A DNA stretch of 64,000 nt from an uncultured Bacteroidota bacterium (GTDB lineage Bacteria > Bacteroidota > Bacteroidia > Flavobacteriales_F > PHOS-HE28): NCBI GenBank assembly GCA_902826215.1, contig CADEDY010000016.1:3109-67108 (forward strand), given 5' to 3'. The notes beneath the pieces were generated by a model. That model saw only the letters and a program-made list of their open reading frames with translations, searched no databases and was not told the DNA's origin. The first letter of the stretch is position 1, and every line of letters starts with the position of its first letter. Of the stretch, positions 6,140 to 52,541 are shown in pieces. The translations under genes were made by a program, and so were the position numbers.

Positions 6140-7063
6140 ATGGGACTCCAGAACGATCTTCGAATGCAGTGGCGCACCGGCGGTATGGTGGTGCAGCTGA
6201 TCCTGATCAACGTTGCCGTATTCGTTGCGTTGCTTCTGGCCTATTTGGTCCTACTACCCGTCGGTGGCAGCGGCGCAGGGGCGACCTATCTACGGGACGT
6301 GTACGTTGTGCAATGGCTGCGTTCAACCGCTGACCTCGGCCAGTTGGTCACTCGACCCTGGACGGTATTCACCTATATGTTCGTGCACACTGGTCTTGGG
6401 CACATCTTCTGGAACATGATCCTGTTGTGGTTCGGTGGTCGCATGTTCCAGGATCTGTTGGGCGGCAAGCGTTTGCTCGGCAACTACATCCTTGGTGGGC
6501 TCAGCGGTTTCGCCTTGTTCGCACTGGTTCACAACCTGTTGCCCGGCATGCATGGTGGTGCATCCGCTCCGGGTATTCTTGGTGCATCAGCCGGTGTGCT
6601 CAGTGTCTTCATCGGCATAGCAGCTTACCGACCGGATATGGTGGTGCATCTCATCCTCATTGGCCCGGTGAAACTGATGTACGTTGCTGCGGTATTCCTT
6701 CTGCTTGATCTGGTCGGGATCGGCTCGGGCGATGGTGTTGCGCACGAAGCGCATATCGGCGGTGCTTTGTATGGTTTCCTAGCGGCACGTCAACTCGCAA
6801 GTGGTCGAGACTGGTCGCTGAGTTTCGTCAACTTCCTGGAGAAACTCAGCGCACCGTTCCAACGCAAGCGTGGATCCCGTATGCGGGTGGAGAAGAAGTT
6901 CGCACGAAGCACCGTTTCACAAGATGCAGCCTACAACGCCAGCAAACTGGAGAAGCAAGCGCGAGTGGACCACATCCTCGACAAGATCTCACGAAGCGGA
7001 TACGATAGCTTGAGCAAGGAGGAAAAGGATTTCTTGTTCAAGGCGAGTGATGGGAAGGGTTAG
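6140..7063 (+). CDS. Rhomboid family intramembrane serine protease (second paralog, with a C-terminal soluble extension)
   Basis: GASAGVLSVFIG and HEAHIGGALYGF motifs, 6-7 TM helices, and a C-terminal charged tail. Confidence 0.85.
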   Translation: MGLQNDLRMQWRTGGMVVQLILINVAVFVALLLAYLVLLPVGGSGAGATYLRDVYVVQWLRSTADLGQLVTRPWTVFTYMFVHTGLGHIFWNMILLWFGGRMFQDLLGGKRLLGNYILGGLSGFALFALVHNLLPGMHGGASAPGILGASAGVLSVFIGIAAYRPDMVVHLILIGPVKLMYVAAVFLLLDLVGIGSGDGVAHEAHIGGALYGFLAARQLASGRDWSLSFVNFLEKLSAPFQRKRGSRMRVEKKFARSTVSQDAAYNASKLEKQARVDHILDKISRSGYDSLSKEEKDFLFKASDGKG

Positions 7064-7164
7064 TTGTGAAACACGTGCAACGGCTTCGGCGTGCTAGTGG
7101 AGAACAGAGCATGGAACACGATAACCGGCCTTGGAAGACCCACTAGCACAGTTCGATATTCGAA

Positions 7165-44714: not shown

Positions 44715-44890
44715 AAGGAGCTTTCTGCGACCCCGCTAGGGTCGGAACACGCGCAACTGGAACTACAACAATGCTCGCCGACCCCGCTGGGTCCCGGATA
44801 CGTGTAACATCAATGCTCGACCATGACCCCGTCGGGGTCACAGAAACTAGAACAATAGGTCGCGCACCATTGACCCCAGCGGGGTCGCAG
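44715..44890. repeat. Four tandem hairpin-bearing repeat units of about 47 nt. The hairpins are GACCCC-N3-5-GGGGTC at 44728-44744, 44780-44793, 44824-44840 and 44872-44886.
   Basis: Direct reading. The palindromes are cGACCCcgctaGGGTCg, GACCCcgctGGGTC, TGACCCCgtcGGGGTCA and GACCCCagcGGGGTC. The spacers also share motifs (aac..caatgctcg / caataggtcgcg). Confidence 0.7.
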
Positions 44891-44929
44891 AGGATCAGCC
44901 GGTCCGAGACGTAGCGCTAACCGCTTTCT

Positions 44930-45586
<657 letters not shown>

Positions 45587-45653
45587 GGGTTGCGAGGTCG
45601 GCAAGCAACTCAAGAGTTGGCGCTCCGTCTCCGGTGTATAAACGAGGTATTGG

Positions 45654-48617
45654 ATGATCACGTTGCAGAGAATCATTCTTAGTGCAGGGTTGGCCACATC
45701 GGCCGGGCTACTTACGGCTCAGGAAGGGGCGCTCGATCCCACGTTCAATACTAACGATGTGGGTTTCGGACAAGGCATGGGGGTGCTCGGCACGCCGATC
45801 CTCACCCTGCAACCTGACGGCATGATCCTGATCGGCGGGACCGCCCTGTACAATGGCAGAAGCGCTCCCGGTCTGGCTCGAGCGAATGCGAACGGCTCAT
45901 TCGATGCGGGCTTCAACATAGGAACGGGGGCCAACAGCAATGTATGGGATGTGGCCGTTCAAGCGGATGGGAAGATCCTGATCGGCGGATCATTCACCCT
46001 CTTCAATGGCGTATCGCGAAATGGCATTGCCCGCTTGAACACGGACGGATCACTGGACACCGGTTTCGACCCCGGTAGCGGCGTGGTCGGCACGGTCTAC
46101 AGCTTGAACATACAGGCCGATGGCAAGATCATCCTCACTGGGAATTTTCTGACCTATAATGGTATCGTGCGCAACAACCTGGCACGGGTAAATTCGAACG
46201 GTAGCCTTGATACGAGCTTTGACCCCGGTACAGGAGCCAACTTCGAGATCGCGGATGCTGTGCTACAACCGGACGGTAAATTGCTGATCGGGGGGAGCTT
46301 CACCACGTACGGTGGAGTTTCTCGAAACCGCGTCGCGCGCGTCTTGGCGAACGGGATGTTGGACTCAGGATTCAACCCTGGAACCGGTGCATCGGATCCG
46401 GTAAGTTGCATCGCCTTGCGTTCGGATGGACGTGTAATGATCGGCGGTTCTTTCATCAATTACAATTCCACTGCGTGCGGCCGTATCGCTCGATTGAACA
46501 GCAACGGCAGCCTCGACGCCACGTTCAACACTGGGACCGGGGCCAACGGAGCTATCGATGAAATTTCGATACAACCCGATGGCAAGATCGTTCTGGGCGG
46601 CAGTTATACCGATTTCAACGGCACCGCTCAACCCTATCTGGTACGCGTGAATACGAACGGCACGTTCGACACCGGATTCGCACCGGCCGGGGATGGTGGA
46701 ATTTCCAGTATCGCGCTGCGCGCCGACGGGTCCATGTTTATTGGCGGAGTGTTCACCACCATGGGCGGATATGGTTACAACGGGCTCGCCCACCTCAACA
46801 CCGATGGGAATACGGACCTTACGTTCAACCCGGGATCGGGTGTGAACAGCTACCCGACCGCTTTGGCCGTGCAACAGGATGGAAAGGTGCTGCTGGGAGG
46901 TGGTTTCAGCGGGTTCAATGGTCCGGCAAGAAAGTTCCTGGCCAGGCTGCTTCCGGACGGATCACTCGATGCTTCCTACGATGCCCGGTTCACATCCGGG
47001 ATCTGGACCAGTGCGATCACCGTACAACCTGATGGCAAAGCGCTCGTAGGGGGAGTGTTCTGGACGGTCAACGGTATCACCCGCAACGGTCTGGTCCGCC
47101 TCGGCACCGACGGGAGCGTTGACACCGGATTCGATCCGGGATCGGGGACCTCGGGATCCGTGGATGGCATCATCGTTCAGCCCGATGGAAAGATCCTGAT
47201 CTGCGGCCAGTTCACTACGTTCAATGGTGCGCCACGGAACAGGATCGCACGTCTGTTACCGAACGGTAACGTGGATAGCGGATTCGATCCCGGAAGCGGT
47301 GCGAACCAGGCCGTACGGAACATCCTTCTGCGACCGGATGGTAAGATCGTCGCGGTCGGGGCCTTCACCACATTCAATGGCTTACCCCGCAACGGGGTCG
47401 TGCAATTGAACCCAGACGGAAGCGTCGATCAGCTGGTGGACTTCGGTGCTGGAGCCGACGCCAGCCTCAATGAAGCCGCGCTACAGGCCGATGGCAAAGT
47501 CCTCATCTCAGGCTGGTTCACGACGGTCAATGGCACACCCCGCAACAAGATCGCCCGTTTGAACGTGGATGGCACATTGGACAGCAGCTTCGATCCCGGG
47601 ACGGGGCTGGACATGCCTCCGACCTCCATCGTTGTTCAACCGGACAGCAAGATCATGATCGGTGGGTTCTTCACCACTTACAACGGCACCACAAGGAATA
47701 GGATGGCCATGCTGATGCCCAATGGGGATCTGGACCCGAACTTCGACCCTGGGACGGGACCCAGTGGCGCGGTTCTCGCAATTACTCCGCTTCCCGATGG
47801 GAAACACGTGTTGGGTGGTCAGTTCATTTCATACAACGGGATCGGCCGGAACAACATCGCCCGCATCAACGGAACCCCTCGTGCAAGCATTAGGCTGATG
47901 CTCGAAGGACCCTACAGCGCCACATTGATGAATGACGCCTTGCGCACCCTCCCCACCTTCCCGCTCACCCAGCCCTTCACGGCAATGGGCTATGCGCACC
48001 CGACGTTCACCGCAGGCAGCACGATCCCAACTTCGATCTTGAGCACCACCGGTAATAACGCCATCGTGGATTGGGTGATCGTGGAAATGCGACCGGCCGC
48101 GACGCCGGGCACCGTTGCGGCTTCACGTGCAGTTCTCTTGCAGCGCGATGGCGATGTGGTGGACCTCGATGGCGTGAGCACCGTCGGTTTCCCCGGCCTG
48201 GCTGCTGGCAGTTATTGCGTGGCGATCCGATCACGGAACCACCTGCCTGTAATGCTTTCAACGGCAACACCTGTTACCTACGGTTCGGGCATTGCCTTTG
48301 TGGACTTCACGTTACCGACCACACAGGTTTACGATGGTGGAGCGAGGGTAGCTACCGACGGTGTAATGGTGTTGGCGGCGGGCGATGTGAACTTCAATGG
48401 AACGGTGCGTTATACCGGAGATGCAAGCGACCGTGACCTCGTGCTTCTACGCATTGGCGGTGTGGTACCCACCGCCACCCTAGCGGGCTACTGGCCAGAG
48501 GACGCGAACATGGATGGGGCTGTTAAATACACCGGTCCAGAGAATGACCGCGATGTCGTCTTGCGCAGTATTGGTGGTGTCGTCCCAACGAACACGCGCA
48601 GTGCCGCGCTCCCATGA
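45654..48617 (+). CDS. Secreted delta-60 / SBBP beta-propeller repeat protein (about 17 repeats) with a C-terminal duplicated dockerin-like Ca-binding motif
   Basis: Signal peptide. Repeats of about 50 aa with the pattern NGSLDxxFDPGTG...DGKILIGGxFTxxNG..RNxIARL. The C-terminus carries DVNFNGTVRYTGDASDRDLVLLRIGGVVPT and DANMDGAVKYTGPENDRDVVLRSIGGVVPT. Confidence 0.75.
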   Translation: MITLQRIILSAGLATSAGLLTAQEGALDPTFNTNDVGFGQGMGVLGTPILTLQPDGMILIGGTALYNGRSAPGLARANANGSFDAGFNIGTGANSNVWDVAVQADGKILIGGSFTLFNGVSRNGIARLNTDGSLDTGFDPGSGVVGTVYSLNIQADGKIILTGNFLTYNGIVRNNLARVNSNGSLDTSFDPGTGANFEIADAVLQPDGKLLIGGSFTTYGGVSRNRVARVLANGMLDSGFNPGTGASDPVSCIALRSDGRVMIGGSFINYNSTACGRIARLNSNGSLDATFNTGTGANGAIDEISIQPDGKIVLGGSYTDFNGTAQPYLVRVNTNGTFDTGFAPAGDGGISSIALRADGSMFIGGVFTTMGGYGYNGLAHLNTDGNTDLTFNPGSGVNSYPTALAVQQDGKVLLGGGFSGFNGPARKFLARLLPDGSLDASYDARFTSGIWTSAITVQPDGKALVGGVFWTVNGITRNGLVRLGTDGSVDTGFDPGSGTSGSVDGIIVQPDGKILICGQFTTFNGAPRNRIARLLPNGNVDSGFDPGSGANQAVRNILLRPDGKIVAVGAFTTFNGLPRNGVVQLNPDGSVDQLVDFGAGADASLNEAALQADGKVLISGWFTTVNGTPRNKIARLNVDGTLDSSFDPGTGLDMPPTSIVVQPDSKIMIGGFFTTYNGTTRNRMAMLMPNGDLDPNFDPGTGPSGAVLAITPLPDGKHVLGGQFISYNGIGRNNIARINGTPRASIRLMLEGPYSATLMNDALRTLPTFPLTQPFTAMGYAHPTFTAGSTIPTSILSTTGNNAIVDWVIVEMRPAATPGTVAASRAVLLQRDGDVVDLDGVSTVGFPGLAAGSYCVAIRSRNHLPVMLSTATPVTYGSGIAFVDFTLPTTQVYDGGARVATDGVMVLAAGDVNFNGTVRYTGDASDRDLVLLRIGGVVPTATLAGYWPEDANMDGAVKYTGPENDRDVVLRSIGGVVPTNTRSAALP

Positions 48618-48625
48618 TGTTCAAC

Positions 48626-48688
48626 CATAGTGCGGAGTTGGCGGACATGGCGGATCGACGGTTGGTGATGCGGGATGGGGTGATCTGA
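48626..48688 (+). pseudogene. Degenerate relic of a lolD-type gene 3' end ([20 protein letters not shown])
   Basis: About 80% nt identity (45 of 56) to 45531-45586, the 3' end of the intact lolD-like gene ([20 protein letters not shown]). It ends at the same in-frame TGA context GGGGTGATCTGAGG. Confidence 0.7.
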
Positions 48689-48714
48689 GGACCAAGCAAA
48701 CCGTGATACGCACG

Positions 48715-49161
48715 ATGCGAAAGATCTTGACCCCATTCCTCTGCCTCTTCATGGTCGCATGCGGGACCGGTCCAGCTCCGGGCACACCCACTTCGGCCGA
48801 GCGTGCACCGCAAGAGACCATCGTCCTTCAGGATCAAGGAACATGCGCGCTATGCGGTTCTTGGAGTGCGACCAAGGTCACCATCAACGGCCTTTCGGAC
48901 CCGGACATGGACCCCACTGGCAAAGTGGATTGGATCATTCGGCCGGATAGTACGCTGACCATGCGCGACGCCACGGAAGGGGAATTGGAAACAATGGATG
49001 GGAAATGGCGCGCTGGCGAGAAAGGAAGGCTCACGTTGATCGACCCGGAAGGCAACGAGTTCACTGAATTCCTGGTGACCCGATTGAACAACGGTGAGTT
49101 GGTCATGCAAGTGCTCGAAGAAGACCAAGCAGAGGTCCTTCTGTATTTCTCGCGGCAGTGA
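48715..49161 (+). CDS. Hypothetical lipoprotein (start at ATG 48715; a GTG at 48703 is also possible)
   Basis: MRKILTPFLCLFMVACG lipobox. 148 aa beta-rich (lipocalin-like guess). No recognised family. Confidence 0.55.
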   Translation: MRKILTPFLCLFMVACGTGPAPGTPTSAERAPQETIVLQDQGTCALCGSWSATKVTINGLSDPDMDPTGKVDWIIRPDSTLTMRDATEGELETMDGKWRAGEKGRLTLIDPEGNEFTEFLVTRLNNGELVMQVLEEDQAEVLLYFSRQ

Positions 49162-49227: not shown

Positions 49228-50892
49228 ATGCGCTTAACAGCACTTTGTCTTCTCCTTATCACCAGCGCCAGCACAGCCTTCGCCCAACCCGAACTCGCAG
49301 GCGACTTGAACACGCTGCCCGGTTGGATGCAACAGGTGATCTCCACCGAGAAGACACAGTCCTGTATCCTACCGAAGCGCGCCCCCTTGCACACCAACGC
49401 CTTCATCGGCACATGGAGCATCGCGAAGAAGAACGGATCGCGCTACGATTTCTGGAGCGACAAGTATCGTGTGGTGATCAAAGAGATCGACCGGAAAGGC
49501 GAACAACGGCGAACCTATTACATCGACCTGGAGGCGAACCTGCGCATGAACGCAAGCACGCACGAGGATGGAAACTTCTTCGCTGTAGAGGATCTGGAGA
49601 TCCCGCAGGCCGGTTACTTCCGAGAGCTTTGGAACGATTCGGTGCAAGCGACCGGTCGTGTGGAGGACATCCTGGGAGCATCTTGCAAGGAGCTGCGCGG
49701 CATCGACGGCAACAAGGACACGACCTACTACTGGAGCACCAACAAGCACCCCAAGCTCTTCGCCGACCTGCTGGTGTGGGCGCAGTGGCTGTGCCGCGAA
49801 GGCGACCTGAAATTCCTGAGCGCACTCAGCGACAGGAACGCTGGCGGATCGATGCGTGTGGACTGGCCGAAGCGCCGCTTTGGGCTAGAAGCCGGGAGTA
49901 TCGCCTTCCTGTCGATCACGCCCGGCGCCACGCCCATGCCTGTGCTGGAGCATAGGCCATACAAGGTGGTGGAGCAGCGTTTCCAGTGGTTGAACAACTC
50001 GGGCATCGGCCGCCTGCCGGATTGGATGCGCAGCTCCATCACTTCGCTCGAGCCCCATCCATTACCAGTGCAATTCACACCCGCACCCGTGGATCGCGGC
50101 ATCGCGGACAATGCCTTCATCGGCACCTTCACGGCGGAAACGCCTACGCGCTATGTTGATGAGAGGAAGGACACCACCATCCGGCTTGCGAAATACAGCT
50201 ACTGGGCCGATGCACGCCGTGCTGTCCTCACCCTCAACGACCCGGACGATGAAGGCACCGTGATCTACATGGTCGATCTCGATGCAGACGTGGCCATCGT
50301 AGCGACCAACGAAGGACACAGCTATGTGATCCCCAAGCTCTACATCGGCACGCTGGAGGACGCTGGACTTACCGAGTTCGGGCGTGGTGTGGAAATGGAC
50401 TTCCAACCACAAGGCCAATACAAGACAATTCTAGGCCGTAAATGCGAACTGCACACTTCGGCGGAAAGGTTCCTCCATTTCTACCTGTTCCCGAAGGAGG
50501 AAGTGCAGAACCCCATCTTCGACATGGCCCGGTGGATGGAACCACGCCCTTCGCAGAAGTTCAAGGACATCATGTTCTTCGGTGTCGCCGATAGGCCGAT
50601 GCCGATGGCCGTAATGAGCACGCAATTGACCAGTTACAAGCCCGGCAGCACCAAGCCACCGATCATCGACCTGAGCAATTACAGCGTGCGGGATCAGCGG
50701 CTCGAGCGTCGCCGGAATCGGGAGGAGCGACCGATGATCGAAGAACGCATCATTTCCATGGATGACCTGGAGAACGACAATTTGGTGGCACCAACTGAAG
50801 AGCCACCGGTATACATGATCGCAGAACCGCGGATTGAAATACCCGAACCACCACCGGTTGCGCCACCGCCACCGCCCGTGGCCCCGCGATGA
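49228..50892 (+). CDS. Secreted protein with two homologous internal domains and a Pro-rich C-terminal tail (paralog family member A)
   Basis: Signal peptide MRLTALCLLLITSASTAFAQ. Domains at about 30-270 and 280-520 share FIGTW / FIGTF and ILGASCKEL / ILGRKCEL motifs. The tail is EPPPVAPPPPPVAPR. Confidence 0.65.
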   Translation: MRLTALCLLLITSASTAFAQPELAGDLNTLPGWMQQVISTEKTQSCILPKRAPLHTNAFIGTWSIAKKNGSRYDFWSDKYRVVIKEIDRKGEQRRTYYIDLEANLRMNASTHEDGNFFAVEDLEIPQAGYFRELWNDSVQATGRVEDILGASCKELRGIDGNKDTTYYWSTNKHPKLFADLLVWAQWLCREGDLKFLSALSDRNAGGSMRVDWPKRRFGLEAGSIAFLSITPGATPMPVLEHRPYKVVEQRFQWLNNSGIGRLPDWMRSSITSLEPHPLPVQFTPAPVDRGIADNAFIGTFTAETPTRYVDERKDTTIRLAKYSYWADARRAVLTLNDPDDEGTVIYMVDLDADVAIVATNEGHSYVIPKLYIGTLEDAGLTEFGRGVEMDFQPQGQYKTILGRKCELHTSAERFLHFYLFPKEEVQNPIFDMARWMEPRPSQKFKDIMFFGVADRPMPMAVMSTQLTSYKPGSTKPPIIDLSNYSVRDQRLERRRNREERPMIEERIISMDDLENDNLVAPTEEPPVYMIAEPRIEIPEPPPVAPPPPPVAPR

Positions 50893-51689
50893 GCAACACG
50901 ACACACCACTGTTACATGCGGCATCCAGCGCTATTGCTCGTTCTTGTTCTGGCCACCTGCACACACGCACAATCCATCGCGCTTCCCGAATGGATCCATG
51001 GGTCCTTTGCACCCGAAGCCTCCACCGTGCTCACGGACCAGCCGACGCATAGCGCCTTGCGCAACACCTTCATCGGCAGCTACATGGTGCGCATCACCAT
51101 CCGGCACGATGGCATCACCCAACAACTCTATGTGAGCCAATGGTCCGACACCACACGCGGGGTGGTGCAGGTGCAGATGATACCGGGCTTCCCGCACACC
51201 ACCTACTTCGCCGACTTCAGCAGCAATACGGCCGTGATCGCCAACATCATCGAGCGCAAGGCGCGCGTGGGCGAGTTGAATGCGGTGCTGCTCACCGATC
51301 GCTTGGGTTCACCCGGCGCAGGCGCGCAGTTCGCTCCCTTCGGATCGATCAACGCCAAGCAGACCGAGAACATCGCTGGTATCGATTGCACGGAACACCT
51401 GCTCGTGGAAGGCGCCGACACCATGCACATGTGGCTCGCTGACATTTCGCCATCGCCCTTTGCCGAAGCTCCCGCTTGGATCCCGTTGAATGAAGGGCCA
51501 TTGAAAGCATTCCGTTTGCTGTACAAACTCGGTGATCGCGTTGCGTTCAAGTTCGTGTTGGCGCCGATGATCGAACTGGAGGTGATGGACTACACACCCG
51601 GCAGTGCACCTCCACCCTCCATCGACCTCAGCAGCTACACGTTGGAACGCATGCCAGCTGGGTCATTGGCGAGTCCCAAGCGCCCGTAG
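50889..51689 (+). CDS. Secreted single-domain paralog (family member B)
   Basis: Signal peptide. FIGSYMVRI and NIAGIDCTEHL motifs homologous to the domains of 49228-50892. ATGA overlap with the preceding gene. Confidence 0.65.
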   Translation: MSNTTHHCYMRHPALLLVLVLATCTHAQSIALPEWIHGSFAPEASTVLTDQPTHSALRNTFIGSYMVRITIRHDGITQQLYVSQWSDTTRGVVQVQMIPGFPHTTYFADFSSNTAVIANIIERKARVGELNAVLLTDRLGSPGAGAQFAPFGSINAKQTENIAGIDCTEHLLVEGADTMHMWLADISPSPFAEAPAWIPLNEGPLKAFRLLYKLGDRVAFKFVLAPMIELEVMDYTPGSAPPPSIDLSSYTLERMPAGSLASPKRP

Positions 51690-51716
51690 CAAGCGAAGAT
51701 ACAAGGCTTCATTATC

Positions 51717-52541
51717 TTGTCGTCCCTACCATCCCTGATCATGAGAACCGCACTCCTCCTCTCCCTGCTCGTTGTTTCCGTTGGCCAGAACACCCACGCC
51801 CAATCGCTCGAAGAGCTGATGAAGAGGGCGATGGAGCAAAGTCAGCAGAGTGCCGGCGGTGGTGCTGGAAGTGTCACCATCGAAGAGAACAACGACCCTT
51901 TCGAGCCGTTGGGTTTCACCGGTTCCTACAAGATGGAGGTGCATAATTACAAGAGCGGGAAAGAGGACAAGGACAGCCCGATGTTCGTGGACCTGGCATT
52001 CACCGACGATAAGATGGCCATTGCACCGCACAGCAGCTCTGCTGCCAAGCAGGACATGCGCATGATCTATGACCTCAAGAACAAATTCACGTACACGTTG
52101 ACGACGGATGAGAACGGAAAGCGCACCGGCATGAAGATGAAAATGATGAAGGTGAACGTGGATGAGAAGGAAGGCAAGGCCTCGTCCGATAAGACCAAGG
52201 TCGTGCGAACCGATGAGACCAGGACCATTGCCGGGCACACCTGCCGCAAATACACGTTCAGCGATGAGACCGGTAGCGGCGAAGCCTGGATCGCGGAGGA
52301 TGTCAAGTTCGATCCATCGAAGGCCATGGGCACCATGGTGGGCGGCAAGAAAGTGGAGAACTGGCAGAAGACGCCCTATACCGGCCTGGTGATGGAGACC
52401 ACGTGGAACGATGCCAATGGCAAGGACAAAATGGTCATGTACTGCAAGGACCTCGTGGTGGGCAAGGTGGATGAAGCCGCCTTCAGCACATCGGGCTACG
52501 AGATCATGGACATGAGCAACATGCCGATGTTCGGGAAGTGA
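51717..52541 (+). CDS. Secreted single-domain paralog (family member C; possibly DUF4412-like)
   Basis: Signal peptide MRTALLLSLLVVSVGQNTHAQ. FTGSYKMEV and RTIAGHTCRKY motifs in the same order as in members A and B. Lys-rich and lower in GC. The DUF4412 attribution is from memory only. Confidence 0.6.
   Translation: MSSLPSLIMRTALLLSLLVVSVGQNTHAQSLEELMKRAMEQSQQSAGGGAGSVTIEENNDPFEPLGFTGSYKMEVHNYKSGKEDKDSPMFVDLAFTDDKMAIAPHSSSAAKQDMRMIYDLKNKFTYTLTTDENGKRTGMKMKMMKVNVDEKEGKASSDKTKVVRTDETRTIAGHTCRKYTFSDETGSGEAWIAEDVKFDPSKAMGTMVGGKKVENWQKTPYTGLVMETTWNDANGKDKMVMYCKDLVVGKVDEAAFSTSGYEIMDMSNMPMFGK

Follow-up and report, generated by a model that had tools for sequence, protein, structure and literature searches.

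A displaced lolD gene end bounding a delta-60 repeat module in an uncultured Flavobacteriales clade

In Escherichia coli K-12, the DNA brought in with e14 (or with phage 21) supplies a new 3' end to the gene icd, and the old end is left behind as the pseudogene icdC (PMC13626634). [quoted passage not shown] The minimal mobile elements of Neisseria, a concept used in two reports (PMC3787668, PMC3082526), are cassettes that lie between conserved flanks and move by transformation and homologous recombination. Here we describe a footprint of this already known type in an uncultured clade of Flavobacteriales. In a stretch of 64,000 nucleotides (nt) from contig CADEDY010000016.1, which we call the window and whose positions are used throughout, a gene for a LolD-like ABC ATPase (lolD) is followed by a large gene of the delta-60 repeat type (d60), and directly behind the latter stands a 74-nt segment in which the 24 final codons of lolD recur as a copy that is displaced and non-functional. 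This relic is the right-hand boundary of the d60 module (Table 1), and the locus behaves as a recombination-driven cassette site.

A second lolD end behind the delta-60 gene

Positions 48615-48688 are an ungapped copy of the last 74 nt of lolD (45513-45586), identical at 56 of 74 sites, with 10/19 matches in the first part and 46/55 in the remainder. The copy starts at the T of the TGA stop codon of d60 and runs in the same register, without gaps, to the lolD stop codon. Its best local match (45532-45588 against 48634-48690) is identical at 48 of 57 nt (84%) and has a blastn E value, against the whole window, of 8.7e-13 at word size 7 and 1.3e-6 with blastn-short; it is the sole such match in the window, the next best having E >0.2. 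In a tblastn comparison of relic and lolD end, 16/24 residues are identical (E 3.5e-7), and the longest identical runs between the two copies are 11-14 nt. The segment thus has the orientation and the stop codon of the intact upstream gene together with significant similarity to its 3' end, as expected of a displaced gene end. A first-pass annotation of this DNA had already reported a second copy of the lolD 3' end after d60, and both searches bear it out, although GGGGTGATCTGAGG lies 2 nt further on than was given (48677-48690, not 48675-48688), and the match is 84% over 57 nt with 16 of the last 20 residues shared, rather than about 80% over 56 nt with 15 shared. Its remark that no remainder of an ABC ATPase lies upstream also holds: no LolD remnant beyond the 24 residues was detectable in 45590-48760. 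L086, a metagenome contig of independent origin, carries the relic unchanged, and in L081, a 2.3-Mb contig of a 99% related strain, it is the same up to ...GGGGTGATC. The displaced lolD end is confirmed as real and not an artefact of assembly.

Two further resemblances did not last. Homology beyond the stop codon (the words CAAGCAA and CGCAAG) was dropped once more loci had been compared, and the repeat ends at the stop codon; the dinucleotides shared after the stop, as in TGAGG of the window and TGACG of L001, are present in no more than two of four genomes and were dismissed as chance.

Related genomes show what the site looks like without a d60 gene. A scan of genome contigs with LolD listed 600 stretches, and close relatives beyond these, such as L083, were reached only through d60 protein homologues; in all, we collected about 20 distinct loci from d60 homologues, from their contigs and from a metagenome scan with the conserved C-terminal domain of the d60 protein. 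Close relatives among the LolD matches listed were L001 (91% LolD identity), L002 (88%) and L003 (82%). In L002 and L003, lolD is followed directly by a homologue of a 554-amino-acid (aa) gene, there is no d60 gene and no second lolD end was found, whereas in L001 a 994-aa d60 follows lolD, and the relic there is decayed, shorter and ends ...GGTGATCTGA. Across the genomes compared, the 554-aa gene homologue stands directly after lolD at empty sites and after the relic at occupied ones. Three occupied loci, L001, L087 and L117, have behind the relic a sequence that matches the one behind lolD in L002 (E 1e-7 to 4e-7), which has no homology to what follows their own lolD. An empty and an occupied site should be related in this way, and the relic therefore stands for the lolD end that formerly adjoined the downstream gene. 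The first-pass annotation had read the arrangement as the footprint of an insertion and had named comparison with relatives lacking d60 as one way to check it; that reading holds, given the single lolD end of L002 and L003 and the flank of L002. A search for second lolD ends in 80 genome-contig loci gave only short matches at chance level (L006, L014, L020) and missed the decayed relic of L001. Adjacency of lolD and d60 is widespread in the clade.

Age, junction and exchange at the site

The relic consists of two parts in different states. We compared relics with 15 functional lolD ends from the clade and counted the states that are absent from every functional allele. In the 3' 51 columns of the window relic there are none (0/51; eight are non-consensus states that functional alleles allow), and in the 5' 24 columns there are about seven (~7/24; Fisher p 1.7e-4). 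The 3' part differs from the resident lolD at nine nt, six of them in synonymous codon pairs and the other three giving E to D and K to R, and the relic state at all nine sites (9/9) is seen in functional lolD alleles. Random change would be expected to be synonymous with a frequency of 0.20, against the 6/9 observed, and to fall on an allowed state with a frequency of 0.19, so that at least four post-relic changes, all allowed, would have p <=1.3e-3. Because of this synonymous bias and the uniformly allowed states, we conclude that the copies grew apart in different lineages at a time when each of them was still coding, which agrees with the earlier proposal of a diverged relative as donor. 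Thus the 3' 51-57 nt of the window relic are an undamaged allele of lolD type and the 5' 19-24 nt are decayed, and so the 3' part has probably been a pseudogene only briefly, while the 5' part, which adjoins d60, would be much older.

Several relics also resemble the lolD ends of other lineages more than the one beside which they lie. Over the full alignment, the window relic (B_WIN) is 79-80% identical to the lolD ends of L001 (A_L001, 80%), L096 and L107, the closest ones, and 74.7% identical to its own, and over 57 nt it is ~89.5% identical to those of L001 and L107 and 84% identical to its own. For the relic of L083 (B_L083), identity is 93% with the lolD end found in L115 (A_L115), whose CTC codon it shares, against 84.5% with its own lolD end; L115 is the sister lolD lineage of L083, having the most similar lolD overall.

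The join between d60 and relic is not particular to this genome. In at least five lineages, d60 ends ...CTGCC[R] and is followed by TGATCGTGACG, the relic starting exactly at the d60 stop codon. The join (...CTGCC[R], then TGATCGTGACGCACAAC...) is present in window/L086, L081, L083/84/85/90, L087, L099, L001, L117 and L119, and the 5' boundary of the relic, TGATCGTGACGCAC, is sharp and common to several lineages. The 5' part is better preserved than that of the window in L083, L087, L099, L117 and L119. Since the C-terminal domains of the d60 proteins at relic-bearing loci are only 64-70% identical to that of the window, the junction is ancient rather than recent in this genome. The first-pass annotation had favored insertion of, or recombination with, a segment of roughly 3.1 kb; a recent, single event specific to this genome does not agree with a junction shared by at least five lineages, with the two relics that L117 and L119 each carry, or with a relic whose two parts are of unlike apparent age. 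GC content, which it had suggested checking, shows no contrast: that of 45590-48625 (0.56-0.61) is uniform across the region and the same as that of the flanks, so that any donor was a relative and not a distant organism. That first reading is thus partly supported: right in outline, with a displaced old end and ends from diverged lineages, and wrong if taken as a single recent event.

Behind lolD, d60 modules occur in zero, one, two or three copies. L117 has the order lolD, d60, relic, d60, relic, and its two d60 proteins are 44% identical; L119 has three d60 genes, of which the end of the contig truncates the first, in the order d60 end, relic, d60, d60, relic, with both relics free of indels and the middle d60 gene without one. 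L082 has two d60 genes and L118 three, in both cases without relics. A box, CGTCTAnnTTG, stands 20-35 nt before the ATG of each d60 gene in the relatives (for example L083 3975-3990, L119 185-200 and 3335-3350, L116, L117 and L001) and is promoter-like, resembling the Bacteroidetes -7 element, whose consensus is TAnnTTTG; the copy in the window is degenerate (45625-45636). Together, the stacked modules and the box before each d60 gene show a repeating unit of leader, d60 open reading frame (ORF) and lolD-end relic. The content of the lolD-d60 site varies further in L118, where a 2-oxoglutarate (2OG)-Fe(II) oxygenase gene (643-1194) separates lolD from the three-gene d60 array; one d60 gene of that array carries a type IX secretion system (T9SS) Por_Secre_tail.

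A recent exchange can be mapped by comparing the window with L081 and L114. L081 equals L114 upstream of lolD and in lolD to 45544, and all three are identical at 45545-45589; from 45590 onward, L081 follows the window (module 99.1% identical) and L114 differs nearly everywhere, beginning in the leader (45587-45653), which is unrelated between module types. Thus L081 and L114, whose lolD genes are 98.8% identical, carry different modules, L114 one of L087 type (80% over 2605 nt) and L081 one of window type. This mosaic means that at least once a module was replaced through a crossover within the final 45 nt of lolD. The mapped crossover (45545-45589) falls inside repeat copy A, ~30-75 nt downstream of the 5' boundary of the repeat.

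At its other end, lolD shows a further break. The first ~170 nt of the window gene (44939-45147 region) are 77% identical to those of L081 and L114, and the sequence upstream is unrelated or highly diverged; the rest of the gene is, for the most part, 97-98% identical to that of L081 and 95-98% identical to that of L114. To judge from these alignments, there is a second recombination breakpoint in the same gene, within 650 nt. In the intergenic region upstream of lolD (44722-44895), we also noted four copies of a 15-nt palindrome, GACCCCnnnGGGGTC, starting at 44729, 44780, 44825 and 44872, spaced 45-51 nt apart and found nowhere else in the window (three matches at <=1 mismatch against 0.1 expected). 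They sit where synteny with L081 and L114 breaks, homology starting at 44969, and may be elements resembling repetitive extragenic palindromic (REP) sequences, or stacked hairpins.

Origin of the relic and rival explanations

The history that we find most plausible, and on balance probable, is that a join with homology on one side made the relic, and that later homologous recombination between lolD ends shuffled the modules. In the first event, a donor segment consisting of a 3' portion of lolD, the leader and d60 would have recombined into a genome in which lolD was directly followed by a gene of the 554-aa family. The left crossover would have been homologous, inside lolD, where the necessary anchor is present at the insertion site, and the right join illegitimate, linking the last codon of d60 (native ...CTGCCG TAG) to about codon 192 of lolD (...TTCGTGATCGTG) at a 3-nt CGT microhomology. 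Such an event would be homology-facilitated illegitimate recombination; it would have left the resident lolD end behind as the relic, whose TGATC would now supply the d60 stop codon. The junction reads ...CTGCCG followed by TGATCGTG, which is compatible with a CGT microhomology between the native d60 end CTGCCGTAG, an inferred donor state, and the lolD sequence TTCGTGATC, and a match of 3 nt is not statistically meaningful. Once bracketed by two lolD ends, the module could enter relatives by ordinary double homologous recombination, and homologous recombination could likewise stack it there or remove it again; entry would use a left arm in lolD and a right arm in which the relic of the donor pairs with the lolD end of the recipient. 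The relic could also be repaired from the functional copy by gene conversion. Both routes would renew the 3' part with the allele functional at the time, and the 5' part next to d60 would stay old. The combination of a decayed 5' 19 nt with a pristine 3' 57 nt is what renewal of the 3' part by transfer or conversion would leave.

Several observations weigh against this history or limit its reach. The primordial event is unobservable, and the 3-nt microhomology is weak evidence for it. Intragenomic conversion combined with a later replacement of the lolD end gives the same pattern as module transfer, and no strain pair shows the right-hand crossover of such a transfer, the L114 contig ending inside d60. 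Natural competence is not, to our knowledge, described for these uncultured Flavobacteriales. In L082, L091, L092, L096, L097, L116 and L118, the d60 genes adjacent to lolD have no recognizable relic, and relic-less genes of this kind end in TAG or TAA followed by unrelated sequence. Moreover, relic-bearing d60 genes are not monophyletic in a neighbor-joining tree of the C-terminal domain, so that multiple relic losses or multiple transfers are needed, and a story in which one clade has the relic is ruled out. Finally, the relic alignments span only 50-75 nt, which means that statements about the nearest allele rest on few sites, and all relatives are metagenome assemblies.

Alternatively, the whole pattern may have arisen in situ, through one ancient local duplication or insertion followed by intragenomic conversion, with no transfer of modules between lineages. 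The relics of L119, pristine and nearly identical to each other, would fit this, as would the first relic of L117, which is ~90% identical to its own lolD end; conversion between direct repeats that lie 3 kb apart is plausible, and the junction has a single origin. We nevertheless consider a purely local history unlikely, because, in the window as in L083 and L087, the relic resembles lolD ends from other lineages more than its own, and because L081 and L114 differ in the module that stands behind 98.8% identical lolD genes, so that exchange is demonstrated. Conversion mediated by RecA has a minimum length requirement for identity, and the 11-14 nt runs shared by the two copies in the window are too short for it to be efficient today.

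We give still less credence to a site-specific integrative element that carries d60, uses an attachment (att) site in the 3' end of lolD and brought with it a new gene end, its integrase having been lost or acting in trans; the relic would then be the native end, at attR. The topology is the same as in icd-e14-icdC (PMC13626634), different lineages have the same sharp left boundary of the repeat, and stacked modules that each end in the same repeat are reminiscent of cassette arrays. Yet no integrase or transposase family was found among the called genes within 4 kb in eight related loci or around the window locus, and no recombinase family was found among the genes called in L081-L085 and L116-L119 or, with Pfam, among the neighbors in the window. 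The supposed element would be a single gene, and the d60 genes adjacent to lolD match host genes in their divergence and show no trace of a mobile backbone. The crossover is not at one fixed core either, since the only mappable recent exchange, a single event, lies at 45545-45589 and not at the 5' boundary of the repeat (45513-45525).

It is very unlikely that the segment is functional, whether as a 24-residue peptide translated through the ATGA overlap or as an RNA or DNA signal for the downstream genes. The frame is intact in the window, its ATG overlaps the d60 stop codon and the 3' 51 nt have no private substitutions; however, the frame is broken by indels of 1 or 2 nt or more in L083, L087 and L117, and L081 has lost the stop. 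On account of these frameshifts we reject the peptide-coding reading of the 24-codon ORF. As for a signal, the relic is absent from many lolD-d60 loci, no Rfam match was found in the whole window, and a scan of the + strand at the relic for sites of terminator-like or sigma-70-like type found none; furthermore, the states that it keeps are the ones allowed in a lolD end that codes for protein, and a non-coding signal would have no need of them. That the similarity is due to chance or faulty assembly is scarcely credible, for although the segment is short, the match has E ~1e-12 in the window and 3.5e-7 at the protein level, and the same structure recurs in independent assemblies from several lineages.

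A tentative reading, which we hold possible rather than probable, is that the relic traveling with each d60 gene serves as a portable right-hand homology arm, so that, with lolD as the other arm, the 3-kb surface-protein gene could insert, stack, be deleted or be swapped in any relative by ordinary homologous recombination. The locus would then be a cassette array without an integrase, in which each relic would record the lolD end displaced by the previous insertion.

Genes of the locus and comparison with known systems

Table 1. Features of the lolD-d60 locus in the window
Feature	Positions	Strand	Basis
LolD-like ABC ATPase gene (lolD), intact, 215 aa	44939-45586	+	Pfam ABC_tran, E 1.4e-34
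Repeat copy A: functional lolD 3' end, codons ~192-215, H-loop region to stop	45513-45586	+	ungapped alignment
Intergenic leader of the d60 module, 67 nt	45587-45653	+	upstream regions compared
Delta-60 (d60) / DUF5122 beta-propeller gene, 987 aa	45654-48617	+	Pfam, NCBIfam
24-codon mini-ORF, ATG overlapping the d60 stop (ATGA)	48614-48688	+	judged incidental
Boundary of d60 and relic, TGATCGTGAC			
Relic, 5' part, old and decayed; its TGA (48615-48617) is the d60 stop codon	48615-48633	+	10/19 identical to lolD, fixed register
Relic, 3' part, undamaged lolD-end allele differing from the resident lolD end	48634-48690	+	48/57 against own lolD end
Small predicted lipoprotein gene (MRKILTPFLCLFMVACG...), 26 nt 3' of the relic	48715-49161	+	ORF list, sequence
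554-aa gene	49228-50892	+	blastn matches to L002, L003, L001, L087

The best NCBIfam match of the lolD protein is the LolD model TIGR02211, which outranks the MacB, YbbA and FtsE models; its score of 266.6 bits is below the equivalog cut-off of 307.75, and LolD-like is therefore the safe name. Orthologues of 215 aa are called in the relatives. The d60 protein belongs to the delta-60 repeat family, with seven stretches matching TIGR02608 (E 1e-96; 316.6 bits, cut-off 76.5) and 14 stretches matching Pfam DUF5122 (PF17164; E 2e-171). It closes with a conserved 245-aa domain and the residues ...LP, after which comes the stop; homologues are ~1000 aa long and 44-55% identical, and every one retrieved ends ...LP. 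Between module types, the repeat region is largely unalignable and the 245-aa C-terminal domain is conserved, so that only ~1.0-1.2 kb of the ~3.1-kb window module aligns with other types. Within d60, internal repeats at 47178-47381 and 47484-47687 are ~68% identical in nt sequence. A literature search for "delta-60 repeat" found no papers.

Downstream of the relic, the predicted lipoprotein gene has no Pfam or NCBIfam match and is not at the equivalent position in L001, L087 or L002. In L081 (~7030-7090, against window 48686-48790), the sequence after the ...GGGGTGATC of the relic is rearranged and ~45 nt shorter, which removes the relic stop codon together with the signal peptide and lipobox of the lipoprotein. 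The genes that follow, at 49228-52541, are ORFs of 554, 266 and 274 aa, of which the third matches DUF4412 weakly; neither Pfam nor NCBIfam gives the 554-aa gene an assignment, and its family is duplicated in relatives, with two paralogues each in L001 and L087.

The relic shows, to the nucleotide, how a large beta-propeller gene came to stand behind a housekeeping ABC ATPase gene in this uncultured Flavobacteriales clade. As far as the evidence goes, it has no role in the cell, its value being that of a record, and the 24-codon ORF should not be called a gene in annotation. The site is a recombination hot spot at which genes of the d60 type are gained, lost, duplicated and exchanged without mobile-element genes. 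Should relics act as portable arms, a relic that arose by chance would make of a gene a cassette whose spread needs homologous recombination only. Bacteroidota, and cargo other than toxins, would then join the examples known from Vibrio T6SS, Rhs and Neisseria.

The locus shares with icd/e14 the order of intact gene with a 3' end supplied by the incoming DNA, insert, and short pseudogene that repeats the original 3' end. As here, most differences between the two icd ends are synonymous or conservative, and recombination between them gives a chimeric functional gene (PMC13626634). Unlike our insert, the prophage e14 has a site-specific integrase of its own and an att core that is defined; ours is one surface-protein gene without a recombinase, and the exchange that could be mapped is homologous recombination within the repeat. 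Integron cassettes offer another likeness, in that single-gene modules, each ending in a related repeat of ~75 nt, are stacked beside a fixed site. In contrast to an integron array, however, there is no intI or other nearby integrase, the repeat is a coding fragment rather than an attC hairpin with RYYYAAC/GTTRRRY cores (its sequence GGTTGGTG does not fit GTTRRRY), and each d60 gene has its own promoter-like box.

Comparison with Neisseria minimal mobile elements reveals the same alternation of gene content at one site in related strains, with exchange through homologous recombination in conserved flanks and in the absence of mobility genes. There, both flanks are conserved resident genes; here, the right flank is a 74-nt copy of the left gene that would travel with the cassette. 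The Neisseria cassettes move by transformation, of which we know no instance in this clade. Like the V. cholerae T6SS loci, finally, the site has a conserved upstream anchor gene behind which displaced 3' ends are pushed downstream and arrays grow by repeated events. The difference lies in what is displaced: in the T6SS loci, the relic comes from the variable effector gene and the retained immunity genes are selected, whereas here its source is a housekeeping ABC ATPase that has no relation to the cargo, and neither the relic nor the older modules give any sign of being selected.

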